Positions 16,165-60,160 of a stretch of DNA of 64,000 bases are shown here, piece after piece. Every line of letters starts with the position of its first letter. Position 1 is the first letter of the stretch. This stretch comes from a virus, in the IMG/VR virus record IMGVR_UViG_3300025121_000011, positions 261,474-325,473 of that record; one strand, given 5' to 3'. The notes beneath the pieces were generated by a model. That model saw nothing but the letters and a program-made list of their open reading frames with translations. It made no database searches and was not told the DNA's origin. Position numbers and translations under genes: made by a program.

Positions 16165-16187
16165 ATATAAATGGAGATAGACAAATC

Positions 16188-17174: not shown

Positions 17175-17199
17175 CGTTTACATACTAATCGCAAAGCCC

Positions 17200-17258: not shown

Positions 17259-17363
17259 AACCAAGTCGGAGAAGTCCTCCCAATTACATTAATATTACGG
17301 TTACGGGGTTTGGAGTTTTTCACCTCACGAAAGACCAACATTTTTCAAAGGAGGAATCAAATC

Positions 17364-17711
17364 ATGGATTCGGAACAGTTTGTCAAGGCAGGTGGTCGTT
17401 TTCTTCATTACCGAAGTTCTGCTCAACGTAGAATTACGGTGGCATATCGAGTGGAAAATGGGAATATTCTCTATGGGGCGGAGATTCATCAACCAGATGG
17501 TCCGGATGATTGCTGGATAAGGAAACAGGCAAATTATCGAGCTTTGTATCGGCTGATTAGCCAGCCGGTGACTATTCCTGATGGGAATATGACAAATACC
17601 GAGAGGCATAGTTATATCCGAAGTGCTCTTATCAAGTTTGGGTGTTGCCAAAGAGAAGTTCTTTCTGTCAATAAAAATATCGCCGGGAAGGACTTGAAGA
17701 GAAGGGTTTGA
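17364..17711 (+). CDS. hypothetical protein
   Basis: SD AAAGGAGGAA then ATG 17364; track start 17172 lies inside the promoter module. Confidence 0.5.
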   Translation: MDSEQFVKAGGRFLHYRSSAQRRITVAYRVENGNILYGAEIHQPDGPDDCWIRKQANYRALYRLISQPVTIPDGNMTNTERHSYIRSALIKFGCCQREVLSVNKNIAGKDLKRRV

Positions 17712-33769: not shown

Positions 33770-34130
33770 GTTTTACCTATTCCAACTGAATTGCGAGAGC
33801 GAAAAAGAGTGGATTGATTTTTATTATGGTTTATCAGTCCTCCTTCATATTTAGTTATATAATTGCTTATACGGTTGTTTTAGATGTTTTGTCTATATTT
33901 AAATAGCAATATACAAAAGATATACGTCTAAGAAAAGTTTGAATTAAGTAAAAATATTTAGATAGCGATAAAATTCAGTATCTGTTGAGTTTGTTAGAGA
34001 AATTTATACACAAATTGATGAAGTTAATATCATTGGGTATTATTCTTCTTATGATGTTATTCATGTTGATGTTAACCGATGAACAGAAGAAATCGGTGAT
34101 ATATAATATGGATGCAATTGGAGGTTGGAA

Positions 34131-34631
34131 ATGATCTCATCAAGAGATTTGATTCTTTTTATTAATCCTCCAAAATATTTATCCGTATTGATTGCTTATA
34201 CAGTTGCCGCAGATGTTCTGCCTATATTTGAAAAGCATTTTCCGAAGGATTTGAGACCGAGAAAAGCTGTTGAAGCGTCTAAGATGTATTTGGATGGATA
34301 TGCGGTTGATGCTGCTGCTTATGTTGATGCTCCTTCTGCTCATTATGCTCCTTCTGCTCATTATGCTGCTGTTGCTGTTAATGCTGCTGATGCTTATGCT
34401 GCTGCTAATGCTGCTGCTAATGCTGTTTATTTTACGGCCAAAGATTCTTCCGAAGAACACATCTTTAACCTAATTTTATCTCTGCTTCCTCAGATGATCG
34501 ATTATGCTGTTGAAAATCAAGTTAAGTTATTCACCGGGTCTGGAGACTTCTCAGAAATATTTGAGATGTTAACCGATGAACAGAAGAAGCTGGTGATATA
34601 CAATATGGATGTAATTGGGAATTGGAAATGA
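34131..34631 (+). CDS. tandem-array protein 1: conserved N/C domains with hypervariable Ala/Tyr/Asn-rich core
   Basis: ATG 34131 (SD GGAGG); ends about 90% identical at DNA level to copies 2 and 3; core built of GCT-rich degenerate repeats. Confidence 0.6.
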   Translation: MISSRDLILFINPPKYLSVLIAYTVAADVLPIFEKHFPKDLRPRKAVEASKMYLDGYAVDAAAYVDAPSAHYAPSAHYAAVAVNAADAYAAANAAANAVYFTAKDSSEEHIFNLILSLLPQMIDYAVENQVKLFTGSGDFSEIFEMLTDEQKKLVIYNMDVIGNWK

Positions 34632-35185
34632 TTTCATCAAAAGATTTGGTTTTATTCATTAATCCTCCTAAATATTTATCCGTATTGATTGCTTATACAG
34701 TTGCCGCAGATGTTCTGCCTATATTTGAAAAGCATTTTCCGAAGGATTTGAGACCGAGAAAAGCTGTTGAAGCGTCTAAGATGTATTTGGATGGATATGC
34801 GGTTGATTCTGCTACCGCTGTTAATGCTGCTAATGCTGCTGCTAATGCTGCTTATGCTGCTGTTAATACTGCTGCTAATGCTGCTGCTAATGCTGCTGCT
34901 TATGCTGCTGCTTATGCTGCTGCTTATGCTGTTTATTATGTTGATGCTACTGATGTTGCTGCTAATGCTGCTTATGCTGCTTGTTATGCAGCCAAAGCCT
35001 CTTCCGAAGAACACATCTTTAATCTTATTCTATCTCTGCTTCCTCAGATGATCAATTATGCTGTTGAAAATCAAATCAAGTTGTTCACCGGACCTGGAGA
35101 TTTCTCAGAGATATTTGAGATGTTAACCGATGAACAGAAGAAGCTGGTGATATACAATATGGATGTAATTGGGAATTGGAAATGA
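34628..35185 (+). CDS. tandem-array protein 2 (hypervariable core)
   Basis: ATGA start/stop overlap with copy 1; core differs in length and sequence. Confidence 0.6.
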   Translation: MISSKDLVLFINPPKYLSVLIAYTVAADVLPIFEKHFPKDLRPRKAVEASKMYLDGYAVDSATAVNAANAAANAAYAAVNTAANAAANAAAYAAAYAAAYAVYYVDATDVAANAAYAACYAAKASSEEHIFNLILSLLPQMINYAVENQIKLFTGPGDFSEIFEMLTDEQKKLVIYNMDVIGNWK

Positions 35186-35691
35186 TTTCATCAAAAGATT
35201 TGGTTTTATTCATTAATCCTCCTAAATATTTATCTGTATTGATTGCTTATACAGTTGCCGCAGATGTTCTGCCTATATTTGAAGAGAAGTATCCGAAGGA
35301 TTTAAGACCGAGAAAAGCTGTTGAAGTTGCTAAGATGTATTTGGAAGGATATGCTGCTGATGCTTATGATGCTGCTATTTATTATGTTACTGATGCTGCT
35401 TATGCTATTGATGCCACTGTTTATGCTGCTAATGCTGCTTATTATGCTGCTTATGCTGCTTATGCTGTTACTTATAATTCTGATGCTGCCTATGCCGCTT
35501 ATTATGCAGCTAAAGCTTCTTCCGAAGAACACATCTTCAACCTGATTTTATCTCTGCTTCCTCAGATGATCAATTATGCTGTTGAAAATCAAATTAAGTT
35601 ATTCACAGGACCCGGAGATTTCTCAGGAATATTTGAGATGTTAACCGATGAACAGAAGAAGCTGGTGATATTCAATATGGATGTAATTTAA
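35182..35691 (+). CDS. tandem-array protein 3 (hypervariable core)
   Basis: ATGA overlap with copy 2; same conserved ends. Confidence 0.6.
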   Translation: MISSKDLVLFINPPKYLSVLIAYTVAADVLPIFEEKYPKDLRPRKAVEVAKMYLEGYAADAYDAAIYYVTDAAYAIDATVYAANAAYYAAYAAYAVTYNSDAAYAAYYAAKASSEEHIFNLILSLLPQMINYAVENQIKLFTGPGDFSGIFEMLTDEQKKLVIFNMDVI

Positions 35692-35721: not shown

Positions 35722-36687
35722 ATGAAGCTTGAAGAAATTGGTTTTTATAGTTTGCACGATGAGCGAGCCAAAAATACTTCGTCCTCTTCTCCTATGCAAC
35801 GATGCGAAGTTTTAATTACGGAGGATTGCAATTTTAGTTGTCCTTATTGCAAGATGAAGAAGAATAGTTCTTATCTTTCTTTTGAAGATGCAAAAACCCT
35901 TATTGATTATTGGGCAGATGATGGATTAGTTAATATTCGATTCTCCGGAGGAGAGCCGACTATGAATCCGTATCTTTATCAGATGGTAGAATATGCTAAG
36001 AGTCGCGAGATTAAACGGATAGCTATTTCTACCAATGGCTCCATGGTAACCGAGGTTTATCACGATCTGGTTCAAGCGGGAGTAAATGACTTCTCTATTT
36101 CACTTGATGCTTGTTGTGCATCTGATGGAGATATTATGGCAGGTGGTGTTGAGGGCTCTTTTAATAGGGTGATTGAAAATATCAAATATTTGTCAGCAAG
36201 AACATATGTTACGGTAGGAGTTGTTATTACTCATGAGAATGTTTCTAATGTGGCGAATATTGTTCGTTTTGCTCATGAACTTGGAGTTGCGGATATTCGC
36301 TTGATTTCTGCTGCACAATATAATGTTCTTTTAAAAGGAGTAGAGGATATCGATCCACAGATACTTGAGGCTCACCCGATTCTTAAGTATCGAGTTAATA
36401 ATATTTTAGCCGGCCATAATGTGCGCGGTATGAAAGATTGTGATTCTCATACTTGTTATTTAATTCAGGACGATTCTGTGGTAGTTAATGGGAAGCATTA
36501 TCCTTGTGTTATTCATATGAGGGAAAGTGGTAAACCAATTGGAAAGATTGGACCAAATATGCGACAGGAAAGAATTGCTTGGATGAAAAATCATGATCCT
36601 CATGATGACCCGATATGCAGATCGAATTGCTTGGATATTTGTATTCTATACTCTAATAAGGTAAGATCATTTCACAAGGACATTTAA
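35722..36687 (+). CDS. radical SAM enzyme with C-terminal Cys-rich SPASM/twitch-like domain (MoaA/PqqE/anSME-like)
   Basis: CNFSCPYC (CxxxCxxC) motif, GGEPTMNP and ISTNGS radical-SAM motifs, C-terminal cluster of about 7 Cys. Confidence 0.7.
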   Translation: MKLEEIGFYSLHDERAKNTSSSSPMQRCEVLITEDCNFSCPYCKMKKNSSYLSFEDAKTLIDYWADDGLVNIRFSGGEPTMNPYLYQMVEYAKSREIKRIAISTNGSMVTEVYHDLVQAGVNDFSISLDACCASDGDIMAGGVEGSFNRVIENIKYLSARTYVTVGVVITHENVSNVANIVRFAHELGVADIRLISAAQYNVLLKGVEDIDPQILEAHPILKYRVNNILAGHNVRGMKDCDSHTCYLIQDDSVVVNGKHYPCVIHMRESGKPIGKIGPNMRQERIAWMKNHDPHDDPICRSNCLDICILYSNKVRSFHKDI

Positions 36688-36724: not shown

Positions 36725-37813
36725 ATGCGATTTATTCATTTTCCAAAAATTGGTCAATTCAAGGATGCTATTCATTCGATTCGTCAACGAGGCGCTTATG
36801 TAGGTAGAGATGTTAATGGCGATATTATTTATGATAGTTCTATTTTGATGCCAAAAATTACATTCATTGGTTCTGTTAAAATGCATGGTACTAATTCTGC
36901 TGTATCTTTTCATCGTATGGAAGGAGTGAGGCAGGCTCAATCTAGGAATAAGATTTTATCTATAGAATCAGATAACAATGGATTTTGTAGATTTACAGAG
37001 TCTATTCCCGAAGATGTTTGGGATTTTCTTTTTAATTCTCTATTATCTCCACTAATTACTGAGCCATATCTTTTTGGACGAGTAACGGTTTTTGGAGAAT
37101 GGATTGGTCCCGGTGTTCAGGGTGGTGAAATTGGTATTAAATATCTTCCGAATAAAATCTTTGTAGTGTTCGGAGTATATGTTGGGGAGCGTGATGAATT
37201 AGAAGATAAAACTCCCACCGGATACTTTGTTCCTCTTTGTGATATTCCATCTTTCAATGATGAATCTTATCATCTGAATGATAATAGAATTTATTTAATT
37301 ACTGATTTAGCTCCAACTTTCAAAATAGAAGTCGATTGTAATTATCCAGAAATTTCTAGGAATAAGTTGGTCGAATTAACTATGCAAGTTGAAGCTAAGT
37401 GCCCAGTCGCCAATTACTTTGGAATTGAAGGAACGGGAGAGGGCATCGTATGGTGCTCAATTACGGAAGGGTGGATGGGTCCAGATTTTTGGTTTAAGAC
37501 CAAGGGAGAAAAGCATTCCGCTTCAAAGATAAAAAAGATAGCCGAAGTAGATGTAACAAAGGTAGAGGGAGTAATTGCGTTTTTAGAAGAGACTCTAACT
37601 GAAGTTAGATTGAATCAAGCTTTGGAATACTTAAAAGAAAAAGAGATGCCTATCGATCGAAGTAGCACAGGCGAGTTTGTTCGGTGGATGATCAATGACG
37701 TTACTACTGAAGAGGCTATAATGATGGAAGCCTCAGGACTTACAGTAAAAGAAGTTGGTCCCAAATTAGGCACAGCCGCCAGGCAGTGGTTTTTTAATCA
37801 ACTTAATAAGTAG
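36725..37813 (+). CDS. ATP-dependent RNA ligase, Rnl2-like
   Basis: motif I KMHGTN (T4 Rnl2 KIHGTN), motif IV GEGIVW, motif V FWFKTKG. Confidence 0.7.
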   Translation: MRFIHFPKIGQFKDAIHSIRQRGAYVGRDVNGDIIYDSSILMPKITFIGSVKMHGTNSAVSFHRMEGVRQAQSRNKILSIESDNNGFCRFTESIPEDVWDFLFNSLLSPLITEPYLFGRVTVFGEWIGPGVQGGEIGIKYLPNKIFVVFGVYVGERDELEDKTPTGYFVPLCDIPSFNDESYHLNDNRIYLITDLAPTFKIEVDCNYPEISRNKLVELTMQVEAKCPVANYFGIEGTGEGIVWCSITEGWMGPDFWFKTKGEKHSASKIKKIAEVDVTKVEGVIAFLEETLTEVRLNQALEYLKEKEMPIDRSSTGEFVRWMINDVTTEEAIMMEASGLTVKEVGPKLGTAARQWFFNQLNK

Positions 37814-37816
37814 GAG

Positions 37817-38062
37817 ATGTCCATGTCTTTTACATTTGTTAATGTACTTTTCATTCTCTTTATTTATATGATAGTTTTTGGTTATCCACTTCGTGGTATA
37901 ATTTTATTATTTTTATGGATAATAGATTGTTTTCCAGAAACAAAACATGATCGTTTGTTAATAATTTCTTCATGTATACTTCCAGTATTTGGAGAGTGTG
38001 TGGTTCTTTGGTTCTTAATTAAGCAAATGATTAAGTGGATAAAGGAGGGAAAAGGTGATTAA
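37817..38062 (+). CDS. small membrane protein
   Basis: two hydrophobic helices; SD TAGGAG. Confidence 0.4.
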   Translation: MSMSFTFVNVLFILFIYMIVFGYPLRGIILLFLWIIDCFPETKHDRLLIISSCILPVFGECVVLWFLIKQMIKWIKEGKGD

Positions 38063-38381
38063 AATTAACGGTAAAACATTTTTTACAACTAATATTTCAA
38101 ATGTTTCTATTCGTAATAATGAAATATATATCGACGGAAAGTTGGTAGGCGATAGTAAAGATGCAGAACAGGGTATTCTTACTGTCAAGATTGAGGGTAA
38201 TTTGGTTAGCTTAATTTGTGATGCAACAGTAGAAGTAACAGGCAATGTAAATGGTAGCATTAGCGCTGGTAACTCTGTTTACTGTGGTAATGTTAATGGA
38301 AATGTTAATTGTGGAAATTCTGCTCATTGTAATAATATTGAAGGCAATGTAACTGCTGGAAATTCGGTTCATAAATTATAA
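38055..38381 (+). CDS. protein with Gly-Asn repeat motifs (GNVNGS / GNSVxCGN repeats)
   Basis: GTG start with SD AAAGGAGGG; terminator 38499-38522 downstream. Confidence 0.45.
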   Translation: MIKINGKTFFTTNISNVSIRNNEIYIDGKLVGDSKDAEQGILTVKIEGNLVSLICDATVEVTGNVNGSISAGNSVYCGNVNGNVNCGNSAHCNNIEGNVTAGNSVHKL

Positions 38382-38498
38382 AGAATTGATTCTTGTAATA
38401 AAATTTATGTAGTCGAAAAGATTATTATCTTAGAAAAAAAAGTATCAAGATAATGTATCGATATAAAGCCACGGGATTGCTTTGATTTAGCGTAAGGA

Positions 38499-38522
38499 TG
38501 GCGGACTCAGGTCCGCTATTTG
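38499..38522 (+). terminator. rho-independent terminator
   Basis: GGCGGACTCAGGTCCGCT plus ATTTGG. Confidence 0.45.
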
Positions 38523-38547
38523 GCGCATTGGTTGTCATGGATTAATA

Positions 38548-38578
38548 GAGGTGATAATTGTATAATAAAAGTTTTATT
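38548..38578 (+). promoter_or_regulatory. sigma70-like promoter with extended -10 (TGTATAAT)
   Basis: TTGTATAAT about 100 nt upstream of the Hen1-like gene. Confidence 0.35.
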
Positions 38579-38676
38579 GATCTTAGTAAAGATAAGTCAA
38601 TGAATTGTAGCTAAGGTTTTATTATTTTGATTCGAAAATCGATTGTTCAATACTCAGGATAGAAAGGGAAATAATA

Positions 38677-40038
38677 ATGATTATACGATTTACATCGACC
38701 AATCCAAACGCACTTGATATTCTTAAAAAGAATCCAGAAAGTTTTTCAGGTATTCAATTGAGAAGTCATAAAAATGGTGTGGCTATAGGTAGGATTATTT
38801 CCGCAAAGATTCCTATTGAATATCATATGATCTTTCAAGATACTAAATATAGTTACTCTCAGGATTCCTCTAATCAGATTGATTTTCAAAGTTATTGCAA
38901 TCCTCGTGCAGCACTTGGTTTAATTGGAGAGTTACTCCGGCACGTATTAGTATCAGATCAAGATTGGCGGGATACAGATATTCCATGGCTTAACTCTACA
39001 ATTGGAGAAGTTGATACAAGAGACTTTAACCACACTATTATAGTAGATAATTTATATGCAGATGGTTTTAACTTAGATGGAGGGCTGGTTTTAGAAAAGT
39101 ATTTTAAGGAGATTTCTCTAAAAAGAAATGGTCAGAATCAGTTTGAGCTAAAGATAGATGTCTGTCGAGATACAATACATTATACCATTAATTTATTGGC
39201 TTTTGTATGTATGTATTTGGCGGCAACTAATAAACAGCCTTGGTATCTTAACCGAGATATAGCATCAAAATACATTAGAGTTTTAGAAAATATTGGTGAC
39301 GTGCCATATTTTATTTTATATCTTTTTGCCCGTTCCTGTCTTCCATCGGAAGAATTATTTAATGAATTCGCTCCTCGATTGGAGAATATTTTTTACAGCT
39401 ATGATGATCGAGCAAATGATCTAACTATGGTATATGGAAATACTCAATCAATGAGATTGCGAAGTATTTCTGATTTGCTTTTAACTAATGATAAAATTTT
39501 TTCTAACATTATAGAAATTGGTTGTGGCGATGGAGATTATCCTCGCCGATTAGCAAAGAAGTTGAATAATGGATTAAGTTGGTGGTCATATGATATTGAA
39601 GATCATAGTTATCTTAATCGTAAAATTCCAGAAATGATGGGAAAATTAGCAACATTTAAATTTACTCAAGAGTGGGATCAAATTCCTTTATTGGATAACC
39701 CTATAGTATTGTTAGTAGAAGTAATTGAGCATATGTCGGTTGAAGAAGCGATAGAATTAATCTGTCGAATTTTAGATAAGCACTCTCCGACACAATTAAT
39801 TATTACTACTCCAAATAGGACATTTAATAATTATTATCGGTTTGATCCCGAAGATGATGGATTTAGACACAGCGATCACAATTTTGAAATGACTCAGGAG
39901 CAATTTAAAGAATATATTCTTAGTATCATTAAATTGCTCCCATATGATGCATCCTTTTTCGGAATTGGTGATCGAATTGATGCAGATTATACTACTCAAG
40001 GAGTGGTATTAACTCGTAAAGATCCTGGGTCAAGCTAA
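38677..40038 (+). CDS. hen1: Hen1-like RNA 3'-terminal 2'-O-methyltransferase (bacterial Hen1 architecture)
   Basis: 453 aa; C-terminal SAM motif I IEIGCGDG, metal-binding EVIEH (ExxEH) and H 46-49 aa downstream as in Hen1 methyltransferases; N-terminal ~270 aa non-MTase domain; extended -10 promoter upstream. Confidence 0.6.
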   Translation: MIIRFTSTNPNALDILKKNPESFSGIQLRSHKNGVAIGRIISAKIPIEYHMIFQDTKYSYSQDSSNQIDFQSYCNPRAALGLIGELLRHVLVSDQDWRDTDIPWLNSTIGEVDTRDFNHTIIVDNLYADGFNLDGGLVLEKYFKEISLKRNGQNQFELKIDVCRDTIHYTINLLAFVCMYLAATNKQPWYLNRDIASKYIRVLENIGDVPYFILYLFARSCLPSEELFNEFAPRLENIFYSYDDRANDLTMVYGNTQSMRLRSISDLLLTNDKIFSNIIEIGCGDGDYPRRLAKKLNNGLSWWSYDIEDHSYLNRKIPEMMGKLATFKFTQEWDQIPLLDNPIVLLVEVIEHMSVEEAIELICRILDKHSPTQLIITTPNRTFNNYYRFDPEDDGFRHSDHNFEMTQEQFKEYILSIIKLLPYDASFFGIGDRIDADYTTQGVVLTRKDPGSS

Positions 40039-40496
40039 TGTGGGGCATTAGTCGTAAAGATTCTAGCCCATGTAATGTAGTACCACCACTTTTTATTAAA
40101 TATTTAGATTATTTAGTGAGAGATGGACAATTATATTATATGAAGAGAAATTCTATAAGTCCATCTGTAATGATTCCAGATTCAGCTTACAGTTGGGGCT
40201 GGGATAATGCCGGGAATTATGGATTTGTTTGGCGCGGACCTAATGCCTATGAAGGGAATTTGCCATCCGATTTAGCTGGAATATTTCCACTGTGGGATAT
40301 AATTTGGTCTTTTGCTTATCGTTATGAAAGACATCTTGTAGCAGAACAGAATTGGAATGCAACTCAAAGAGAATACTTTTATATCCTTCCTGATAGATTT
40401 TTGGAATTAGAAGAAATAAGAGAGTTATGCGAACAAAATCTTTGGGTTGAGGCCGCTTCTTTATATGAGGTTAAGAAAAAAATATGGTGCGATTAA
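40038..40496 (+). CDS. hypothetical protein
   Basis: coupled to the Hen1-like gene (stop/start overlap). Confidence 0.5.
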   Translation: MWGISRKDSSPCNVVPPLFIKYLDYLVRDGQLYYMKRNSISPSVMIPDSAYSWGWDNAGNYGFVWRGPNAYEGNLPSDLAGIFPLWDIIWSFAYRYERHLVAEQNWNATQREYFYILPDRFLELEEIRELCEQNLWVEAASLYEVKKKIWCD

Positions 40497-40684
40497 CTTT
40501 GAAATTTCCAAATATTACTGCTGATATTTTAGAGGAAAAGTTAAAGGATGCTGTTGAAAAATTTACATTATCCGCAGAGTATTCTGATGGCGAAGTAATC
40601 ATTATTGGATCAAAAGAGGCAATTCATATAATTCAAAAGGCATATAAAATACAACAGATGCTTTCATCTATGACAGTCAATTAG
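40484..40684 (+). CDS. hypothetical small protein
   Basis: 66-aa ORF in the operon. Confidence 0.35.
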   Translation: MVRLTLKFPNITADILEEKLKDAVEKFTLSAEYSDGEVIIIGSKEAIHIIQKAYKIQQMLSSMTVN

Positions 40685-40694
40685 TGAGGCTTGC

Positions 40695-41105
40695 ATGTCT
40701 GATTATGAGTTTGAATCAAATAGTTTGTTAAATGCTCTTCAACACATTGATTGGGATAAGTTAGTTCTTAATAAAAATTCAGGTATGGCACGTTTGCTTA
40801 CTGGAAGAGATGATTCTATTCCACTTAATAAAATACAAGTGAAGATTGTGTATTCAGATTATAATCCGGTTGGATGGGCTTGGGTTTTTCCATATATTGA
40901 TTATGATGGCCGTCGGCGCCTCGGATTTATGATTTTTATTCAAAGAGAATATCGTCGCAAAGGCTTGGGATCTAAATTGTTAGATTGGGGTCGAAACATT
41001 GCACGTCAAAAGCACATTAAATTTATTGTATATCCATGGGATAAAAAAGGACATTTGTTTTTTGAATCAGCCGGAATAACAAGTAGAAACAAAGGGGACT
41101 GGTAA
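40695..41105 (+). CDS. GNAT-family N-acetyltransferase
   Basis: QREYRRKGLGSKLLDW matches the GNAT motif A (Q/RxxGxG/A). Confidence 0.55.
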   Translation: MSDYEFESNSLLNALQHIDWDKLVLNKNSGMARLLTGRDDSIPLNKIQVKIVYSDYNPVGWAWVFPYIDYDGRRRLGFMIFIQREYRRKGLGSKLLDWGRNIARQKHIKFIVYPWDKKGHLFFESAGITSRNKGDW

Positions 41106-42331
41106 TGGGTAAACGATATTTAACTGAAAAAGAAGAGGGGCGTATTCGTCGAGCTATTAAGCAGAAGATTCAGTTTTTTTCGCCTACTATCTCTCCAGCT
41201 CCAAAAGATATGACTCGTAGAGAGATTGAAAGCATTCGTTCTGCAATCATGATTTATCATGAAGCTGGTATGAAAGGTGTTGTTATTCAACCAAAGTATA
41301 TGGGTTCTTATTGTGATATTTATTTGCATCGAGATCTTGATAAGACTAAATTTTATTCTCGTCGTGGTTATGAAGTTAGACTTGATTTTGAAATCTTGAT
41401 TCAAGCAGTTAAATATTTGCATAATAAGTTTTTTTCCGATGAGTGTGAAATTAATTTTAAAGATGCAGAATTAATCATTATTCAATCCGAGCTTATGCCT
41501 TGGCATGCTTTAGGTGGAGGATTAATTGAGCGAGATTTTGGAGGGTATGAAATCTCTCACCGTATTCACCAAAGGTATTTTGCATCTACTGGCATTAAAA
41601 AAGATGTAGAGTCTTTAACAGAAGATCCGATTTATCGTCAATTTTTAGAAGATAAGTGTGTTATGGATCGTAAGACACTTCTTAAAAAGTATCCAATGCA
41701 TATTGCTTCTCAATATGAAGCTTTAGAAGCTCTTGCTTTTCCAGATGTAGAACAGTATCTTCAAGATATTGAAGTTTATTCCGAACAGCTTTCTCTATAT
41801 GGTTCGGCAGGAGAATTGCATTTTAAACCTTTTAATATTTTAAAGATTGTATATTGTGATGGGCGGGAGGTAATTCCTGGTGATCATAAATTTGGATTTT
41901 TATCAGTGAGATTAAATCAAGAAGAAAATCCAATGTTTGAAATCGATTTCTCAACACCAGAATTGGATAAACAAATCGATTTAGCTTATAAATTCTTTAA
42001 TACATTAACTGATGATAAAAAGATGGAGGGAGTAATTATCAAGCCGATTGGGATATGGAATCCTGATGTTGCACCAATGTTTAAGGTTCGAAATAATAAT
42101 TACTTACAAATGATTTATGGTGTCAATTTTCAGCGTGAGTATGATTATTATCTTAATAAACGAAGCATTGGTGGAAAAGTAAGGGCTTCTAAAAACCAAT
42201 GGAATATTGCACAAGAAATTATTAAAATTCCTATGACGGAAATTAGTGATGACAATGTTAATTACACCAAATTAATTCGTGGTAGAATTTATGAAGAAGA
42301 TTATGAGAGGTTGTTAGATTCTAGATTATAA
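41105..42331 (+). CDS. nucleotidyltransferase-superfamily polynucleotide ligase-like protein (second RNA/DNA ligase)
   Basis: QPKYMGS (KxxG motif-I-like), EGVIIKP (motif IV), MFKVRN (motif V). Confidence 0.5.
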   Translation: MGKRYLTEKEEGRIRRAIKQKIQFFSPTISPAPKDMTRREIESIRSAIMIYHEAGMKGVVIQPKYMGSYCDIYLHRDLDKTKFYSRRGYEVRLDFEILIQAVKYLHNKFFSDECEINFKDAELIIIQSELMPWHALGGGLIERDFGGYEISHRIHQRYFASTGIKKDVESLTEDPIYRQFLEDKCVMDRKTLLKKYPMHIASQYEALEALAFPDVEQYLQDIEVYSEQLSLYGSAGELHFKPFNILKIVYCDGREVIPGDHKFGFLSVRLNQEENPMFEIDFSTPELDKQIDLAYKFFNTLTDDKKMEGVIIKPIGIWNPDVAPMFKVRNNNYLQMIYGVNFQREYDYYLNKRSIGGKVRASKNQWNIAQEIIKIPMTEISDDNVNYTKLIRGRIYEEDYERLLDSRL

Positions 42332-42347
42332 ACAAAAGGTGGTGTAG

Positions 42348-42842
42348 ATGTCTTCTGGTCATGATTCTCAATTGCAAGATGTATTAAGACTTTATGGTTA
42401 TAAATGTTTTTGGTGCAGAACTGATATAGTCAGGGTTTCTTCTTATAGAAAGATGTCTTCGCATGAAAAATCTAAATATAGGGTTGCTACGATAGATCAT
42501 CTTCTTCCGCAATCTTTTGCTGGCACCAATAATTTAAAAAATTTACGACCATCTTGTACTGATTGTAATGGGGCGCGAGGTAATGGTTGGCATAAAGATG
42601 AGGCAGAAGTTTTCCCAAGTTGTCCATTATTGCAAAAGTTAGAGAAGGAAAAGAAAAATCTCAATATTAAACTTAGTTTTCCGGATTCTACAAAGTGGCA
42701 TGCTAAGTGGGGTTCTCGTTTGAGATATACAATTCTTCCTTATGTATCGAAACAGGAGGGAGAAGATACGGAGATTAAACTGGATTTAATTTCCGAAGAA
42801 ATGAATCTGGAGATTCTTAATGAAGGCTCTGAATTGGATTAA
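42348..42842 (+). CDS. HNH endonuclease
   Basis: CFWC ... IDHLLPQSFAGTNNLKNLRPSCTDCN HNH motif. Confidence 0.6.
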   Translation: MSSGHDSQLQDVLRLYGYKCFWCRTDIVRVSSYRKMSSHEKSKYRVATIDHLLPQSFAGTNNLKNLRPSCTDCNGARGNGWHKDEAEVFPSCPLLQKLEKEKKNLNIKLSFPDSTKWHAKWGSRLRYTILPYVSKQEGEDTEIKLDLISEEMNLEILNEGSELD

Positions 42843-45566: not shown

Positions 45567-46271
45567 ATGATTTGGTATATTGGAGATGTTCATTGTCGAG
45601 TTAAAGATATTAAAAAAATCGCCAATGATGCAGAATCGTCTTGTAATCCTCCTGCTGTGTTAATTCAAGTTGGAGATTTCGGATGTTTTTGGCCAAATTA
45701 TACAAAAGAAATGGATGCCTGGATCCATGCCCGCGCGTTAACGCGGGAATGGTCTATTCCAATTATTACATGCGGAGGAAATCACGATAATTGGAATTTA
45801 TTTCTAAAGCTAGAATCAGAAAGTGATGCAGATTTACTAGAGATTATTCCAGATTCTGGAATTTTTTATGCTCGTCGTGGGTCTGTAATAGATATTGGCG
45901 GCATATCTCACGGATTTTTAGGTGGAGCATTTTCAACAAATCAGTCTTCTCTTATAGAAAACATAGATTGGTGGCGTCGTGAGGAACCAAATCGAGAAGA
46001 GTTCGACAGATTTTATCAAAATCTTTTAACATATCATCCAGATACAATCATTACGCATGAAGCTCCACGCTGTGTTTCTTATGATAGAATAGGAAGAAAT
46101 TCAAATACCACAGTTAGGATGTTGGATAATTTGTTTTGGATGGCAATGAAAGATGGATATCAACCGAAACGACATTACTACGGACATCATCATATATTAG
46201 AAAAAAGAAAAATAGCTGGAACAAAATTTTTCTGTTGTGGATACCACGGGGAATATTGGATTCGAGATTAG
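45567..46271 (+). CDS. calcineurin-like metallophosphoesterase
   Basis: GDVHC, GDFG and GGNHDNW metallophosphoesterase motifs. Confidence 0.65.
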   Translation: MIWYIGDVHCRVKDIKKIANDAESSCNPPAVLIQVGDFGCFWPNYTKEMDAWIHARALTREWSIPIITCGGNHDNWNLFLKLESESDADLLEIIPDSGIFYARRGSVIDIGGISHGFLGGAFSTNQSSLIENIDWWRREEPNREEFDRFYQNLLTYHPDTIITHEAPRCVSYDRIGRNSNTTVRMLDNLFWMAMKDGYQPKRHYYGHHHILEKRKIAGTKFFCCGYHGEYWIRD

Positions 46272-47881: not shown

Positions 47882-49057
47882 ATGACTACATCACTTGAAG
47901 ATCTTACCACTGCATTACCAACTTTATATGCTTTAGACAGCAGCGGACGTATCAAGGTCTGGTCCGTTAGCATATGCATACATTTGGATCAATCCGCTAC
48001 ATATACAGTAATTCACGGGCTTTTAGATGGAAAGAAACAGAGAAGCCCGCGCAAAATTACCAGCGGGAAAAATATTGGGAAAGCTAATGAAACTTCCCCA
48101 TATGCTCAAGCGTTATCAGAAGCTCAAAGCAAATGGAAAAAACAGATTGACAAGGGATATGTAGAAGATGTGAATAACATTCCTGTCTGCACAGAGGTAG
48201 AATATTTTCTTCCGATGCTTGCTCAAAAATATACTGAGCGTAGTAAGCACATGAAATATCCTGCGTATGTGCAGCCAAAGTTCGATGGTTATCGAGCACT
48301 TAGTCGAAGAATCGGTAAGCAAGTTGTTCTATGGTCTAGAACCGGGAAGCCATTTTTTACCCTGGATATTATCGTTTCTGAATTAGAATCGATAATAAGT
48401 TCAAATGAATGTTTAGATGGGGAAGTTTATAGGCATGACTGGAGAAGTCCATCTAATGAGCCCGACTTTCAAAGAGTTTCTTCGGCAATTAAAAAGAGAA
48501 AGGCAGATACAGATTTGTTAGAATATCATGTTTATGATCGTCCAATTCCAGAGAAGCCTGAAGCCTCATTCTATGAGCGGTTTTATAAACCAGCGTTCAT
48601 TGACGGCACTTTAGTTGGCAGTGACCATGTTAAAATTGTCCCCACTGCATTGGTGGCATCAGAAGAAGAAATGATGCTTCTTTTTAATCAATGGGTCAGT
48701 GAAGACCTTCCGTATGAAGGTGCTATCGTTAGAAATGCTTCTGGTGTATATGGATTTGACACCAGAAGCAATGATCTTCTGAAGGTAAAGGATTTTCAAG
48801 AAGAAGAGTATGAAATCATTGGAGCTAAAGAAGGTACCGGAAAAGACGAGGGTACTGCAATCTTCTTATGTAAGATGAAGGATGGTACAGAATTTGATAG
48901 TCGTCCGGTAGGCTCTTATGAGCAGAGAGCAGAATATTTAACTAACATTAGTAAATATATAGGCAGATATCTTCGGGTAAGATTTAATGGTCTGTCTAAT
49001 CTTGGGGTTCCACGCTTTAATCGTGGCGTAGGTATCAGAGAAGAATGGGATATGTAA
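47882..49057 (+). CDS. ATP-dependent DNA ligase
   Basis: motif I KFDGYRAL (KxDGxR), motif IV EGAIVR, motif V DLLKVK. Confidence 0.75.
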   Translation: MTTSLEDLTTALPTLYALDSSGRIKVWSVSICIHLDQSATYTVIHGLLDGKKQRSPRKITSGKNIGKANETSPYAQALSEAQSKWKKQIDKGYVEDVNNIPVCTEVEYFLPMLAQKYTERSKHMKYPAYVQPKFDGYRALSRRIGKQVVLWSRTGKPFFTLDIIVSELESIISSNECLDGEVYRHDWRSPSNEPDFQRVSSAIKKRKADTDLLEYHVYDRPIPEKPEASFYERFYKPAFIDGTLVGSDHVKIVPTALVASEEEMMLLFNQWVSEDLPYEGAIVRNASGVYGFDTRSNDLLKVKDFQEEEYEIIGAKEGTGKDEGTAIFLCKMKDGTEFDSRPVGSYEQRAEYLTNISKYIGRYLRVRFNGLSNLGVPRFNRGVGIREEWDM

Positions 49058-50336: not shown

Positions 50337-51158
50337 ATGAAAAAAATTGCAATAATTGGAGATATTCATGGTCGTTTAGATATGTTGATGAAAATGCATC
50401 TGAAAATCAGAGATGCATATGGAGATTTACAATTATATTCAACAGGTGATTTAATTGATCGAGGACCTGATGCCAGTGGTGTGATACAATATTGTATTGA
50501 TAATAATGTAAAGGCTGTTAGAGGCAATCATGATGATTGGCTTAGACAATTATGTGTAAATTATACATTTGACTCTCTTTCTATGCACGAGGTAATGGGA
50601 GGTAGATATACCGCCGTCTCTTATGGAGTTCAATCGGCAATTGTAGGGGAAAATAATAGGGAGATTGCCGAAGACCTTTTTAAAAAGGTTCCTACTTCAC
50701 ATAAGAATTGGTTATCTGCACTACCTATTTATTGTAAAATAGTAATGGATTCTGGAGAAGTTTATTGGATAACGCATGCGGGTTTAACAATCCCTATGGC
50801 AAACGATTTAACAGATGGTTTGTCAAAAGTTTCTGACGATATGCTTATGGCTAGCATTAATACTCCTGATCTTATTGAAACCTTTATATGGACTCGGCCA
50901 AATTTTCCAAAAATATTTGATGAGTCTACACCAGTTAAAAAAAGTACGCATGGCAACAATCTATACCATTTTAAAAATGGAGCTATTCAGGTATTTGGTC
51001 ATAGCGTAACTGGATATCCAGTTATAGATAAACATTATATCGCAATTGATACTGGATGTGGAACACTTAAACGGGAGAAGTTAACCGCAGTTGTTTTACC
51101 AGATAATGTATTTATTACAGTGGACGATTTTGAATTGAGTGGAGATCAGAGCAAATGA
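50337..51158 (+). CDS. PPP-family (lambda-phosphatase-like) Ser/Thr or polynucleotide phosphatase
   Basis: GDIHG, GDLIDRG and GNHD motifs at PPP spacing. Confidence 0.65.
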   Translation: MKKIAIIGDIHGRLDMLMKMHLKIRDAYGDLQLYSTGDLIDRGPDASGVIQYCIDNNVKAVRGNHDDWLRQLCVNYTFDSLSMHEVMGGRYTAVSYGVQSAIVGENNREIAEDLFKKVPTSHKNWLSALPIYCKIVMDSGEVYWITHAGLTIPMANDLTDGLSKVSDDMLMASINTPDLIETFIWTRPNFPKIFDESTPVKKSTHGNNLYHFKNGAIQVFGHSVTGYPVIDKHYIAIDTGCGTLKREKLTAVVLPDNVFITVDDFELSGDQSK

Positions 51159-54261: not shown

Positions 54262-54350
54262 AGTAGTGTGATGGTCCTATTCACTACATTCCTGGAACAA
54301 ATAGTTTAATTGGGAGAACATTGACGAAAGGTGTGGGTTCGAGTCCTGCT
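54262..54350 (+). ncRNA. tRNA-like element lacking a canonical anticodon arm (Y-RNA-like / tRNA-mimic candidate), preceded by hairpin GTAGTG...CACTAC
   Basis: D-arm-like GTTTAATTGGGAGAAC and T-arm GTGGG-TTCGAGT-CCTGC only 13 nt apart; similar in architecture to the 54605 element. Confidence 0.35.
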
Positions 54351-54389
54351 TTGATTTTTTATATTAATCTTAAAATCGCGAGGAGTAAT

Positions 54390-54604: not shown

Positions 54605-54690
54605 TAGTGATCATCCTATTCATTACATATTAATGGGCCAAATAGTTCAAGTGGGAGAATATCGTCGCGAGAAGATGTAGGTTCAAATCC
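54605..54690 (+). ncRNA. tRNA-like element lacking a canonical anticodon arm (second copy)
   Basis: D-arm-like GTTCAAGTGGGAGAAT and T-arm GTAGG-TTCAAAT-CCTAC 15 nt apart; similar upstream hairpin. Confidence 0.35.
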
Positions 54691-54814
54691 TACTTTGAGC
54701 CCCCAATTTCATATTCATAGTTTGGGTACATTCAGCATAAATTTTTTTTACCATATAAAAACAAATCGTACCCAGTGATTTAATCCTGGCTTTTGCCATT
54801 TAATGAGGTGTTTA

Positions 54815-56560: not shown

Positions 56561-56568
56561 TATTTTTT

Positions 56569-56681
56569 GCGGAATAGTGTAGTAGGGAGCACGCGTATAA
56601 TGTATCTTGATAAAGATGTATACAGCAATCAAACAAATCCATTGGGTGGACGAAGTATAGGTTCGAGTCCTATTTCTGCAA
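56569..56681 (+). ncRNA. tRNA-like element with expanded central region (acceptor TGCGGAA/TTCTGCA)
   Basis: D-arm GTGTAGTAGGGAGCAC, T-arm ATAGG-TTCGAGT-CCTAT, acceptor 7/7 with one G-U; 113 nt. Confidence 0.4.
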
Positions 56682-57230: not shown

Positions 57231-57319
57231 ATTTGAATAGCTTAGTGTCAAAGCGTTTGCGGCCTACTTCTTCGGATTCAAAAGCCGTAAAAGTCATAGG
57301 TTAGATTCCTATTTCAAAT
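57231..57319 (+). ncRNA. tRNA-like element with extended anticodon-region helix (acceptor ATTTGAA/TTCAAAT)
   Basis: 7/7 acceptor pairing, D-arm GCTTAGTGTCAAAGC, T-arm ATAGG-TTAGATT-CCTAT, 7-bp central helix with 19-nt loop. Confidence 0.35.
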
Positions 57320-57566
57320 ACTATTTAAACTATAGGTTCACGGAACACACTCTTTCACGGTGGTTACTCACTTTAAATTGAAATATTTTTAGGTCTATAG
57401 TTTAAATTTTTAAGGGATGCAATCAGCAATTAAATTTTTCTTTATGTAAAAACAAATCGCACCCTGATTTTTTTAGGATACAAACAGCAAATAAACATTC
57501 AACTTGTTTTTGAAAAACGTTTAATTGTATCCTGTTTATTATTAGTAGTAGCATTAAGGTGATAAT

Positions 57567-57857
57567 ATGATTCAAGCTATGACTGTATTGACAGCAGAAC
57601 CGCATCCTAATGCGGATAGATTAAAAGTCTATACTCTACGTGCAAGTTATGATGAGCCAATTCTTCAGGTGTGTGCTAATCTAACCAATGTTTATAGTGT
57701 TGGTAATGTTGTAGCTGTTTGTTTAATTGGTCATGCATATGATGGTATGGTTATCAAATCCCGGAAGGTGCGTGGGGTTCTGTCTCAAGGAATGATGATT
57801 GGTACTACAAAGGCTGTTTCAGGTTCTGATGTTACTGATTCATTTGTGATTGTGTAA
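57567..57857 (+). CDS. tRNA-binding domain protein (Myf/CsaA/Trbp111-like OB fold)
   Basis: VLTAEPHPNADRLKVYTL ... VCANLTNV ... GNVVAVCLIG matches the tRNA-binding domain pattern (V.PHPNADKL.VC.VD ... VCGA.N ... G..V.VA). Confidence 0.55.
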   Translation: MIQAMTVLTAEPHPNADRLKVYTLRASYDEPILQVCANLTNVYSVGNVVAVCLIGHAYDGMVIKSRKVRGVLSQGMMIGTTKAVSGSDVTDSFVIV

Positions 57858-58039: not shown

Positions 58040-58648
58040 ATGTTAAGGATGGTTGGGCCCAAAATTCCTATGGATATTTATGTGGCGGCTTCTGGTGGAC
58101 CAGACAGCATGGCTGTCTTGGATTTTCTTATTCGTGGTGGTCGTAAAATTACAGTTTTACATTTTGATCATGGGACTAAACATGGAGAAGATGCTAGAGA
58201 GTTTATTAGGGAGTATTGTCAGTCGAGAGATATTAAACTGATTATTGGAAATGAGATTAGAGAGCGAGACTCTAACGAGTCTATGGAAGAATATTGGCGT
58301 GATATGCGATATCAGTTTCTTGATCAGTATTCAGATAAGCCAATTGTCATGGCACATAATCTTGATGATCAGGTGATGAGTTGGGTATTTACTTCTTTGA
58401 ATGGATTGCCAAAACTTATTCCTTATAACAGAAGGAACGTTATCCGTCCTTTCATTGTAACTTCTAAGCAGAATATGATTGATTGGTGTGAGCGAAATGG
58501 GGTTCCGTATTTAACGGACCCAAGTAATGATGATACAAGATATATGAGAAATTTTATTAGAAAAGAAATTCTTCCTTCAGCTTTAGTTGTTAATCCAGGA
58601 TTATATAAAGTAATCTTAAAGAAGATTTTAAGAAATTTTGAAGGATAA
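58040..58648 (+). CDS. tilS: TilS-like PP-loop ATPase (tRNA(Ile)-lysidine synthetase catalytic domain)
   Basis: PP-loop SGGPDS followed by VLHFDHGTKHGEDAREFIREYC, matching the TilS pattern SGGxDS ... HxxHGxR ... ED..FV..C; 202 aa, so N-terminal domain only. Confidence 0.6.
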   Translation: MLRMVGPKIPMDIYVAASGGPDSMAVLDFLIRGGRKITVLHFDHGTKHGEDAREFIREYCQSRDIKLIIGNEIRERDSNESMEEYWRDMRYQFLDQYSDKPIVMAHNLDDQVMSWVFTSLNGLPKLIPYNRRNVIRPFIVTSKQNMIDWCERNGVPYLTDPSNDDTRYMRNFIRKEILPSALVVNPGLYKVILKKILRNFEG

Positions 58649-58708: not shown

Positions 58709-60160
58709 ATGAGTTTTGTAGACGCAATGACTTCTAATGATATGCTTACAGAAAATGGTGCCGTTACTCACAGCACCTCAGGAAAAGCAATTATGGATAT
58801 GTTTTTCCAGATCGGTGGTATGCGTGGCCATAGTGGTGAAGATGTAATTTCTTTATTTACTAAGGCTCTTGGAGAAGATCCTTTAACGGCAATGAAGATC
58901 TTGTTTTATAACCGCGATATTCGTGGTGGACAAGGAGAGCGGCAAACTTTTCGTTATATTATGTCTTATCTTGCTCAGTATCATCCGGAGCTTATTCGAA
59001 AGAATATGCATTTGATTCCGGAATACGGTCGGTGGGATGATATGTTTGTGTTTGTTGGAACCGGATTGGAGAATGATGCTTTTGCTTTAATTCGCACTGC
59101 ATTGCATGAGCAAAACGGTTTAGCCGCAAAGTGGTGTCCTCGTTTGAAGTCTTCTAAAAAGATTTTAGCAGCAAAACTGTGTGCATATCTTGGAATGACT
59201 CCGAAGCAATATCGTCAAACGCTTGCGAGACTTACCAAGGTTGTTGAAACTCCAATGTGCGCTAATCAGTGGGAAGATATTAACTTTAGTCAGGTCCCTT
59301 CGGTAGCAATGAAAAATTATCGCAAGTCATTTGCGAGACATACTCCCAACGAGTGGGAACAGTATCTTGCTGCTTTAGAAAAGGGCGACCCGGCTGTTAA
59401 GATTAATGCAAGCGCTATTTTCCCACATGACATTATCAAACAGTGGGTTGCTGGTTCAGTCGGTTATTATAGGGTTACATCTCCAGATCGTCAAGAGATT
59501 CGCGCAGCCGAAGCACAGTGGAATGCTTTGCCTGATTATATGGGTGAGAATTCTGGAAAGGTATTGGTTATGGCCGATGTTTCGGGTTCTATGTATTCTG
59601 GTTTAAATCCCAGTTTAGCTCCAATTCAGGCTTCCGTTTCTTTGGCGCTGTATTGTGCCGAACGATGTAAGGGGCCTTTTAAGAATTTTTACATGAGTTT
59701 TTCTGGAAATCCAGAATTTGTAAAGGTTCAAGGAAGTAATATTTACGAAAAAGTTATTAATATCAACAATAAAAATGTTGGATATAACACTGATATTAAT
59801 CGTGCTTTTGCGGTATTGTTGAGTCGCGCAAAGCAGCACTCTGTTTCACAGGCCGACATGCAAGAAACTTTATTGATTCTTTCAGATATGCAATTTGATT
59901 GCAGCGAAATTAGTGGAAAGACTAATTTTGAAACGATTCGAGATCAGTACCGTGCATCTGGTTATCAACTTCCTCAGATTGTTTTTTGGAATTTGAATTC
60001 TAAGGGTGGTGTTCCGGTAAAAATAACTGATGATGGAGTAGCTTTAGTGTCCGGGTTTAGCCCAAGTATTCTTACTGCAATCCTGGGTGGAGAAGTATCG
60101 CCCATGGCAGTTTTGAATAGGGCAATTCATAGTGGACGATATGATGCGGTAACTCTTTGA
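58709..60160 (+). CDS. vWA-domain protein, possibly Ro60/TROVE-like (DUF2828-type)
   Basis: C-terminal vWA MIDAS motif VLVMADVSGSM; N-terminus MSFVDAMTSNDMLTENGAVTHSTSGKA ... resembles the phage/bacterial TROVE-related DUF2828 family from memory; terminator 60260-60301. Confidence 0.5.
   Translation: MSFVDAMTSNDMLTENGAVTHSTSGKAIMDMFFQIGGMRGHSGEDVISLFTKALGEDPLTAMKILFYNRDIRGGQGERQTFRYIMSYLAQYHPELIRKNMHLIPEYGRWDDMFVFVGTGLENDAFALIRTALHEQNGLAAKWCPRLKSSKKILAAKLCAYLGMTPKQYRQTLARLTKVVETPMCANQWEDINFSQVPSVAMKNYRKSFARHTPNEWEQYLAALEKGDPAVKINASAIFPHDIIKQWVAGSVGYYRVTSPDRQEIRAAEAQWNALPDYMGENSGKVLVMADVSGSMYSGLNPSLAPIQASVSLALYCAERCKGPFKNFYMSFSGNPEFVKVQGSNIYEKVININNKNVGYNTDINRAFAVLLSRAKQHSVSQADMQETLLILSDMQFDCSEISGKTNFETIRDQYRASGYQLPQIVFWNLNSKGGVPVKITDDGVALVSGFSPSILTAILGGEVSPMAVLNRAIHSGRYDAVTL

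Follow-up and report, generated by a model that had tools for sequence, protein, structure and literature searches.

Which ligase does the RNA methyltransferase Hen1 work with when its gene is carried by a very large phage-like element, and where do the healing activities of such a repair cassette come from? The question is raised by positions 36725-42842, the cassette region, of a 64-kb stretch of IMG/VR virus record IMGVR_UViG_3300025121_000011 (positions 261,474 to 325,473 of the record). This whole stretch is hereafter called the window, and all coordinates are window positions unless another locus is named. An earlier note, made from the letters of the DNA alone, had described the region as a Pnkp-independent RNA-repair operon in which Hen1 acts together with an Rnl2-type ligase. 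Our analysis points instead to a second ligase, Rnl, encoded in the same block of genes as Hen1. The cassette probably holds an Rnl-Hen1 module for RNA repair and modification, of the Pnkp1-Rnl-Hen1 type and carried by a phage.

Hen1 and its ligase partner

The two genes that carry this reading are the following:

38677-40038, plus strand: Hen1, 453 amino acids (aa) according to the earlier note; Hen1_N, 4xrp_C and 3jwg/3jwi/3htx matches
41105-42331, plus strand: Rnl, 408 aa, stand-alone Pnkp-type ATP-dependent RNA ligase; PNKP_ligase, TIGR04075 and 4xrp_B matches

Hen1 matched the Pfam family Hen1_N (PF22032 type) at 2e-46 over residues 2-237. In a search of the PDB, residues 1-448 aligned with chain C of 4XRP, the Capnocytophaga Pnkp1-Rnl-Hen1 complex, with an E-value of 5.5e-72. 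This full-length alignment, together with Hen1_N, bears out the bacterial-type architecture that had been proposed for the protein. The methyltransferase domain matched 3jwg (8e-12) and 3jwh (1.6e-8), the two structures suggested earlier for comparison, and also 3jwi and 3htx. Identity to Hen1 of C. cynodegmi was 34%. Residues G282-C-G284, D306, E348/E351/H352 and H401 were invariant or near-invariant among 102 homologs, and both the S-adenosylmethionine (SAM)-binding motif and the metal-ligand set (ExxEH plus a downstream His) are intact. The score against TIGR04074 was 64.7 bits (cut-off 340), with the match confined to the methyltransferase part. Hen1 proteins bearing PF12623 aligned to only 36-48% of this Hen1, again in the methyltransferase part.

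Rnl matched PNKP_ligase at 5e-17 and, over its full length, chain B of 4XRP with an E-value of 1.4e-87, which assigns the second nucleotidyltransferase ligase of the earlier note to the Pnkp RNA-ligase type and answers the comparison with Rnl/Pnkp ligase domains suggested there. Its match to TIGR04075 bacter_Pnkp covered positions 482-808 only (1.5e-14; 53 bits against a cut-off of 750), and the protein carries neither a kinase nor a phosphatase domain. The protein is 42% identical to C. cynodegmi Rnl. Residues K64 (motif I), R86, E129, E308/K313 and K327/R329 were invariant among 120 homologs (motifs I, Ia, III, IV and V).

Hen1 and Rnl occurred together in every locus examined, namely in an identical set of 5 among 50,697 records of cultured phages, in eight metagenomic phage-like loci and in the C. 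cynodegmi operon. At the level of sequence, these comparisons show that Hen1 and Rnl are full-length and catalytically intact, and that together they correspond to the ligase-methyltransferase half of the crystallized Capnocytophaga complex. Rnl is the predicted cognate Pnkp-type partner of Hen1, so the cassette would belong to the Pnkp-dependent kind of system. The Pnkp-independent pairing of Hen1 with the Rnl2-type ligase is contradicted, because Hen1's own partner sits in the same coupled block. The metal site of Hen1 is kept, and the two ligases group with T4 Rnl2 and with the Pnkp RNA-ligase domain, respectively, so neither outcome that the earlier note named as refuting it was observed.

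Comparison with bacterial systems and proposed mechanism

The Pnkp1-Rnl-Hen1 system was described in 2015 in about ten Bacteroidota species and was termed a hybrid between the repair systems of T4 and of bacteria. In it, Rnl is the stand-alone equivalent of the Pnkp ligase domain, and Pnkp1 is a homolog of T4 Pnkp with a P-loop kinase and a HAD phosphatase (PMC4411300). The N-terminal domain of Hen1 binds Rnl and presumably activates it. About 3,200 Å2 is buried between Rnl and Hen1, compared with about 600-700 Å2 at each Pnkp1 contact (PMC4411300). The Rnl-Hen1 heterodimer seals ends that have already been healed, at least ten times faster when SAM is present, and once methylated the ligation product resists colicin D (PMC4411300).

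The window shares with this system the same Hen1_N-type domain, a stand-alone Pnkp-type ligase and all catalytic residues. It differs in that no Pnkp1 gene adjoins the pair or lies within 84 kb, whereas C. cynodegmi has it in the operon; the Pnkp1 search covered these 84 kb (the window and its flanks) of a genome of about 333 kb. Further differences are the insertion of two orphan genes, here called X and Y, and of a GNAT acetyltransferase gene between Hen1 and Rnl, the carrier, which is a probable phage of about 333 kb rather than a Bacteroidota chromosome, and the lack of conservation of Rnl N375/D379. With the canonical Pnkp-Hen1 system of Clostridium thermocellum and Anabaena variabilis the cassette has in common the logic of kinase, phosphatase, 2'-O-methylation and ligation, along with homologous methyltransferase and ligase domains. 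However, canonical Pnkp is a single kinase-metallophosphoesterase-ligase polypeptide and canonical Hen1 has a PF12623 N-terminus, whereas here the ligase stands alone and the N-terminus is of the Hen1_N (PF22032) type.

By analogy with the bacterial biochemistry, the N-terminal domain of Hen1 would bind and activate Rnl. The C-terminal metal-dependent methyltransferase would 2'-O-methylate the 5' RNA fragment at its 3'-terminal nucleotide, and Rnl, adenylylated at K64, would then join the methylated end to the 5'-phosphate end. Since the junction would lack a 2'-OH, it would escape transesterifying ribonucleases and be immune to a second cut at that site. Given the phage context, the module would most plausibly counter host defense nucleases that cleave tRNA or rRNA. 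The cassette encodes no enzyme for healing, whether 5' phosphorylation or removal of the 2',3'-cyclic phosphate, and both steps would most likely be supplied in trans, either by a Pnkp-type enzyme encoded elsewhere in the genome, outside the 84 kb examined, or by one of two conserved metallophosphoesterases for the 3' step together with some kinase. The general logic proposed earlier, in which repair with 2'-O-methylation immunizes RNA against ribotoxins, is supported.

Carrier element and phage-borne relatives

An identical Hen1 protein was encoded on 23 metagenomic contigs, the largest of which measured 333,139 and 335,169 bp; the window thus represents roughly one fifth of a very large element. 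A jumbo phage of about 333 kb is the probable carrier, to judge from the many PHROG matches, the T4-family domains encoded in the flanks, the clusters of tRNA genes and the density of small open reading frames (ORFs) pointing the same way, and the mobile-element context assumed for the cassette was borne out. The closest relatives of Rnl and Hen1 (50-60% identity) were found on contigs of 150-420 kb and were nearer than any bacterial protein. Next came proteins from Bacteroidota chromosomes (Flavobacterium, Capnocytophaga, Dysgonomonas, Chitinophagales), with identities of 40-45% for Rnl and 33-36% for Hen1; in C. cynodegmi, hen1, rnl and pnkp1 lie in one operon. A DNA search for the cassette among GenBank phages gave no match, nothing in IMG/VR matched a 38-mer exactly, and single-protein scans of genome and viral contigs gave no confirmed relatives.

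Among cultured phages, a Hen1 gene adjoins a Pnkp-type Rnl gene in XacN1, RAS14/CM1, RYC and sm033 (Xanthomonas, Stenotrophomonas, Vibrio), with proteins only 23-31% identical to those of the window. Their layouts differ. XacN1 and RAS14 have an AAA_33 kinase gene followed by Hen1 and Rnl, and in RYC and sm033 Rnl adjoins a fusion of about 720 aa in which the healing modules, kinase and HAD phosphatase, are attached to the Hen1 C-terminus. None of these cassettes contains X, Y or GNAT. Since they keep the healing modules, healing normally belongs to the phage system, and a trans-acting Pnkp is the most likely solution in the window phage.

Several of these genes carry other names in the databases. 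The GenBank 'polynucleotide kinase' of RYC (L001 5980-8133) and sm033 (L019 4001-6181) is a four-domain Hen1_N-methyltransferase-AAA_33-HAD_PNKP fusion. In XacN1 (L002 5427-8501), ORF197, which GenBank calls a 'metallophosphoesterase' and the paper PNKP, is actually a ligase-only Rnl, and ORF199 is the AAA_33 kinase. The XacN1 authors listed a PNKP/Hen1 pair among tRNA-processing genes at the level of annotation (PMC5852040). Borg elements have also been reported with the three-protein system (PMC11208441).

Phage T4 likewise answers an anticodon nuclease by healing and sealing, using Pnkp and Rnl1, and the first ligase of the window is a relative of T4 Rnl2. In contrast to T4, the window has neither Pnkp nor an Rnl1-type ligase (PF09511), both of which were searched for, and T4 restores RNA unmethylated, with no immunity to re-cleavage.

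Gene organization and the Rnl2-type ligase

The remaining features of the cassette region are the following:

36725-37813, plus strand: Rnl2-family ATP-dependent RNA ligase, 362 aa; PF09414, phrog_548 and T4 Rnl2 profile matches
37817-38062, plus strand: hydrophobic small ORF, 81 aa; no sign of a link to RNA repair
38055-38381, plus strand: bactofilin-like small ORF, 108 aa; no sign of a link to RNA repair
38382-38676, no strand: intergenic gap of 295 bp dividing the Rnl2 block from the Hen1 block
40038-40496, plus strand: X, orphan accessory protein, 152 aa; TAATG coupling to Hen1
40484-40684, plus strand: Y, orphan small protein, 66 aa; 13-nt overlap with X, no family match
40695-41105, plus strand: GNAT acetyltransferase, 136 aa; PF00583, PF13508 and phrog_1249 matches
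42348-42842, plus strand: HNH nuclease, 164 aa; PF01844 and HNH PHROG matches

The five ORFs named in the earlier note were all present on the plus strand with the coordinates given there, and profile searches against Pfam, PHROG and the PDB recovered each of the five activities assigned to them. Four ORFs were missing from that list, namely the two small ones at 37817-38062 and 38055-38381, X and Y. The single co-oriented operon of overlapping genes did not hold, as the region consists of two closely packed blocks parted by the non-coding stretch 38382-38676. The upstream block runs from a radical-SAM gene through the Rnl2-type ligase to the two small ORFs, and the downstream block is Hen1-X-Y-GNAT-Rnl-HNH. 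Translational coupling within 38677-42842 is tight, with TAATG overlaps at Hen1/X and at GNAT/Rnl in addition to the overlap between X and Y. An Rfam scan of the locus, the gap included, found nothing, and promoter and terminator motif scans of the locus showed no enrichment over shuffled sequence. The small-ORF pair matched phrog_3163 (1e-16) and Bactofilin (27.1 bits, slightly under the cut-off); no homologs were detectable at the corresponding place in the related loci L010, L011 and L012.

The Rnl2-type ligase scored 33.4 bits against PF09414 RNA_ligase (cut-off 27) and matched phrog_548 'RNA ligase' end to end at 3e-46. As a lone sequence it had no PDB match, and a six-sequence family profile found T4 Rnl2 (2HVQ/1S68) at 7e-9 as its sole significant PDB match. 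Profile positions 51-320 aligned with T4 Rnl2 residues 35-299, from K52, equivalent to T4 K35, into the C-terminal domain, and K52 (KMHGTN), E125, E239-G-I-V-W and K258/K260 were invariant in the family profile. The identification of an Rnl2-like RNA ligase from its motifs KMHGTN, EGIVW and KTK was therefore correct.

Whether this enzyme serves Hen1 is a separate matter. In the model of the earlier note, the Rnl2-type ligase seals together with Hen1, two metallophosphoesterases (MPE1 and MPE2) heal, and a kinase is unneeded or supplied by the host. In L010 and L037, orthologs of the ligase with 49-53% identity are indeed found 2-3 kb upstream of Hen1, so that it is present in all three loci of the subclade, the window included, with visible upstream DNA. 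However, the ligase was not found within 10 kb upstream of Hen1 in L012, L017, L018 and L038, and its homologs occur in 154 cultured phages, nearly all without Hen1, versus 5 with Hen1/Rnl. The 295-bp gap separates the two blocks, Hen1 has a domain dedicated to activating a Pnkp-type ligase, which is encoded beside it, and both ligase types require a 5'-phosphate, for which no kinase was found. We regard the Hen1-Rnl2 model as unlikely; the healing half of it is taken up with the metallophosphoesterases below. Not a partner of Hen1, the Rnl2-type ligase is a separate enzyme widespread among phages and probably seals nicks independently.

Healing enzymes

The statement that no P-loop polynucleotide kinase was seen in the window agrees with our scan, in which no Walker-A motif was present among window ORFs of at least 60 aa. 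Searches by tblastn with C. cynodegmi Pnkp1, and then with four Pnkp-type queries, detected nothing real in the 64-kb window. The best match, ORF 18561-19163 (E-value 0.09), was rejected as a chance hit with neither a DxDxT motif nor a Pfam match. The flanks of 10 kb on either side held no Pnkp1, only a bona fide dephospho-CoA kinase (CoaE) and an AAA ATPase. The P-loop protein just beyond the window was rejected as an RNA kinase, being a genuine dephospho-CoA kinase (7e-49); its gene lies about 7 kb past the right window end (L013 17875-18477). In none of the eight phage-like relatives did the same four queries find a Pnkp-type gene within 8-10 kb of Hen1-Rnl. When metagenomes were scanned with an alignment of Pnkp1, no contig of this phage was among the matches listed.

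Two candidate phosphatases are encoded downstream of the cassette:

45567-46271, plus strand: MPE1, calcineurin-fold metallophosphoesterase, 234 aa; PF00149 and phrog_1649 matches
50337-51158, plus strand: MPE2, NinI/lambda-phosphatase-type metallophosphoesterase, 273 aa from the ATG at 50337; phrog_246 and PF00149 matches

Both metallophosphoesterases reported earlier are real. MPE1 matched PF00149 (2.4e-7) and phrog_1649 (5e-25), its metal-ligand motifs are invariant, and neither its sequence nor its profile gave an informative match in the PDB. MPE2 matched phrog_246 (1.3e-36) and PF00149 (1.9e-12), with ApaH and lambda PPase (1g5b) as its PDB matches. MPE2 and the phosphatase domain of canonical Pnkp share a superfamily, and the match of MPE2 to the phosphatase part of TIGR04075 bacter_Pnkp is weak (2.9e-6) and surpassed by ApaH/PrpA. 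Downstream of Hen1-Rnl, at a distance of 1-8 kb, MPE1 orthologs (44-57% identity) are present in L010, L011, L012 and L038, so that MPE1 accompanies the pair in five loci, and an MPE2 ortholog (42% identity) recurs in L038. MPE1 and MPE2 are thus candidate 3'-end healing enzymes, as the Hen1-Rnl2 model also supposes, and that model gains as well from the failure to find Pnkp1 in the 84 kb or in the flanks of the relatives. On the other side, no metallophosphoesterase was found near Hen1-Rnl in the more distant loci L017 and L018, NinI-like phosphatases are common stand-alone phage genes, and the synteny may stem from a gene order kept in related phages and not from function.

The contacts between Rnl and Pnkp1 offer another view of the missing partner. 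In 4XRP, the surface residues of C. gingivalis Rnl (CgiRnl) on which the Pnkp1 kinase domain docks are E369, N375 and D379, and the window Rnl has D383, K389 and G393 at these positions; the acidic character of the E369 position is retained. The D379 position is Asp in none of 41 phage-clade sequences versus 48 of 80 bacterial ones. Because a second bacterial subgroup (28 of the 80 sequences) likewise lacks the Pnkp1-contact residues, their loss is suggestive at most.

Several of these observations weigh against the Rnl-Hen1 repair module proposed here. Neither Pnkp1 nor a P-loop RNA kinase was found in the window, its 10-kb flanks or the eight relatives, and in vitro the repair of ribotoxin-cleaved tRNA needed all three proteins, Pnkp1 included (PMC4411300). 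Two of the three Pnkp1-contact residues of Rnl are lost in the phage clade, which could mean that no Pnkp1 docks here. Even the bacterial system has no established substrate in vivo. Finally, none of the ten large window ORFs compared with PHROG proved to be a structural hallmark gene, and the attribution to a phage is inferred. Against the first of these points, in C. gingivalis hen1 itself is unlinked from rnl-pnkp1 (PMC4411300), so missing linkage is no proof that Pnkp1 is absent.

Some of these observations would also fit a role without healing or without repair, in which Rnl-Hen1 acts on ready 3'-OH/5'-P ends, for example the products of metal-dependent nucleases, or Hen1 mainly 2'-O-methylates the 3' ends of particular phage or host RNAs and so protects them from 3' exonucleases or tailing; Pnkp would then not be needed. 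The heterodimer alone efficiently ligates pre-healed ends (PMC4411300), Pnkp1 is consistently missing beside Hen1-Rnl across the phage-like clade while being present in the bacterial operon, and the Pnkp1-contact residues of Rnl are degraded in that clade. Yet a 2'-O-methyl group blocks cleavage in which the 2'-OH is the nucleophile, and the products of such cleavage, a 2',3'-cyclic phosphate and a 5'-OH, need healing; the logic of Hen1 therefore implies substrates that need healing. Other phages have retained a kinase, as in XacN1 and RAS14, or, as in RYC and sm033, a Hen1 fused to both kinase and phosphatase, and the subgroup of 28 bacterial sequences weakens the argument from contact residues. 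Such a role appears improbable to us, and the Rnl-Hen1 repair module with healing in trans remains the preferred reading.

Genes inserted between Hen1 and Rnl

The order Hen1-X-Y-GNAT-Rnl, followed by HNH, is kept in four phages, represented by the window, L010, L011 and L037. In the three relatives, GNAT orthologs lie directly upstream of Rnl, HNH orthologs lie downstream of it, and Y orthologs occupy the same place as in the window. Identity to the window proteins was 36-39% for X, 42-50% for Y, 40-44% for GNAT and 51-58% for HNH, and the Rnl proteins of the four phages are 51-59% identical. In L012, L017, L018, L038 and a 49-kb contig, Hen1 and Rnl are adjacent or have unrelated small ORFs between them. 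X, Y and GNAT are accordingly accessory genes confined to one subclade and, as other members of the clade lack them, are not needed for the core function.

An exhaustive search of 1.84 billion proteins gave an X family of 7 cluster representatives, an earlier homolog search having returned X itself only. All invariant residues of X are aromatic, Gly, Pro, Cys, Leu or Ala, with no polar or catalytic-type residue among them. A single-sequence AlphaFold2 model of X was unusable (predicted local distance difference test, pLDDT, 37), and a model from the 7-sequence alignment reached a pLDDT of 87 and a predicted template modeling score (pTM) of 0.82. The latter had no significant structural match in the PDB or BFVD. 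X looks like a non-enzymatic accessory or adaptor protein. Y matched no Pfam or PHROG family.

The GNAT assignment made earlier stands, with matches to PF00583 (1.4e-7; 32.2 bits, cut-off 20.7), PF13508 (6e-7; 30.2 bits, cut-off 27) and phrog_1249 (1.6e-8). Acetyl-CoA motif A (R/Q-x-x-G-x-G/A) is present as R-R-K-G-L-G-S and kept in the L010 and L011 orthologs. A PDB search found generic acetyltransferases only, with no pointer to the substrate. HNH is likewise confirmed as a nuclease of that family (PF01844, 3e-6; 27.7 bits against a cut-off of 21.4; 23 HNH PHROG families). It is a conserved syntenic neighbor, and any role in RNA repair is putative. A mobile homing endonuclease was considered for it and is unlikely, since the gene is syntenic and its divergence matches that of its neighbors.

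Could X, Y and GNAT be new subunits that replace Pnkp1, giving a five-protein machine with other end chemistry or an added acetylation? The strict order and translational coupling across four phages whose Rnl proteins have diverged to 51-59% identity speak for it, as does the well-folded model of X, a member of a tiny family with no known structural relative. However, X has no invariant polar or catalytic-type residue, the inserts are dispensable in the five loci that lack them, GNATs are frequent and functionally diverse in phages, and no GNAT activity is known to heal RNA ends. We consider this explanation highly improbable. A broader version, in which Pnkp1 is truly lost in the subclade and X, Y and GNAT form with Hen1/Rnl a new repair or modification machine, healing being done by non-Pnkp enzymes such as the syntenic metallophosphoesterases or bypassed, is somewhat less so but still improbable. 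If it were true, acetylation would be a step unknown in any RNA repair pathway.

Genomic neighborhood

The window contains two tRNA-Met(CAT) genes, at 54038 and 55196, one of which could be a lysidine-dependent tRNA-Ile2. Rfam tRNA matches not called by ARAGORN lie at 54295-54357, 54636-54701, 57231-57320 and 56568-56681; the last measures 114 nt and may contain an intron. Next come genes for a protein with a tRNA-binding domain (57567-57857), a PP-loop protein resembling TilS (58040-58648; PF01171) and a DUF2828/TROVE-like 'RNA-binding protein' (58709-60160; phrog_850, 9e-142). The PP-loop and DUF2828 pair was found again about 8 kb from Hen1-Rnl in L038.

A tRNA-Lys(UUU) gene is located at 19685-19760, with a weaker tRNA-like Rfam match at 19870-19940. 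The anticodon nuclease PrrC classically attacks tRNA-Lys(UUU), so the phage copy may complement the repair cassette, although this is speculation.

Other RNA-processing genes were observed near Hen1-Rnl in related elements: a PolX-PHP polymerase and a PolyA_pol/CCA-adding-family gene in L037 (16740-19697), a Thg1 tRNA-His guanylyltransferase in L018 (14117-14905), and a SpoU methylase together with a T4 Rnl1-type ligase 1.2 kb downstream of Hen1-Rnl in the 49-kb contig.

Taken across elements, these surroundings suggest that related Hen1-Rnl elements share a recurrent tRNA maintenance island, and neighborhoods rich in tRNA and RNA-processing genes count in favor of RNA repair as the function of the Hen1-Rnl module.

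Upstream of the cassette lie three tandem paralogous ORFs (34125-34631, 34622-35185 and 35176-35691) with conserved ends and a hypervariable middle rich in Ala, Tyr and Asn; the flanking copies have a weak Imm5_like match. This array directly precedes the radical-SAM enzyme at 35722-36687 (MoaA- and SPASM-maturase-like), which is followed by the Rnl2-type ligase. Its copy number varies between contigs of this phage, with fewer or different copies in L004, L006 and L007.

The G+C content is 43-48% in positions 1-20000 and falls to 32-40% in 20000-64000, with a compositional boundary near 20 kb and a positive GC skew throughout. An ArdC-like anti-restriction protein is encoded at 5005-5877 (phrog_7245, 3e-63; ArdcN and MPTase-PolyVal). 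A third nucleotidyltransferase ligase within 12 kb, at 47882-49057, is an ATP-dependent DNA ligase (phrog_114, 1e-70; PF01068 and DNA_ligase_OB_2). Metabolic genes rare for a phage include Ham1/ITPase (60353-60988), HisG (61029-61613) and a fusion of His_biosynth with PRA-CH/PRA-PH (62515-63762). Genes for a superoxide dismutase and two ribosomal L7/L12-like proteins lie at or just past the left window end (L015).

Implications

The core enzymology of the cassette is already known from the Pnkp1-Rnl-Hen1 system described in 2015. What is new is that the Bacteroidota system has its nearest known relative in a jumbo-phage clade, and that a kinase-less architecture with three conserved inserts exists there, adding to a range of phage layouts. 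The Rnl-Hen1 pair is thus also borne by a family of very large phage-like elements, and at least three phage architectures exist: the Hen1-kinase-phosphatase fusion, kinase-Hen1-Rnl, and the kinase-less Hen1-X-Y-GNAT-Rnl. This gives the system a concrete biological setting, infection, in which tRNA-cleaving host nucleases are a major defense. The orphan proteins and the GNAT inside the cassette provide specific new leads, and "immunizing repair" as a phage counter-defense becomes testable.

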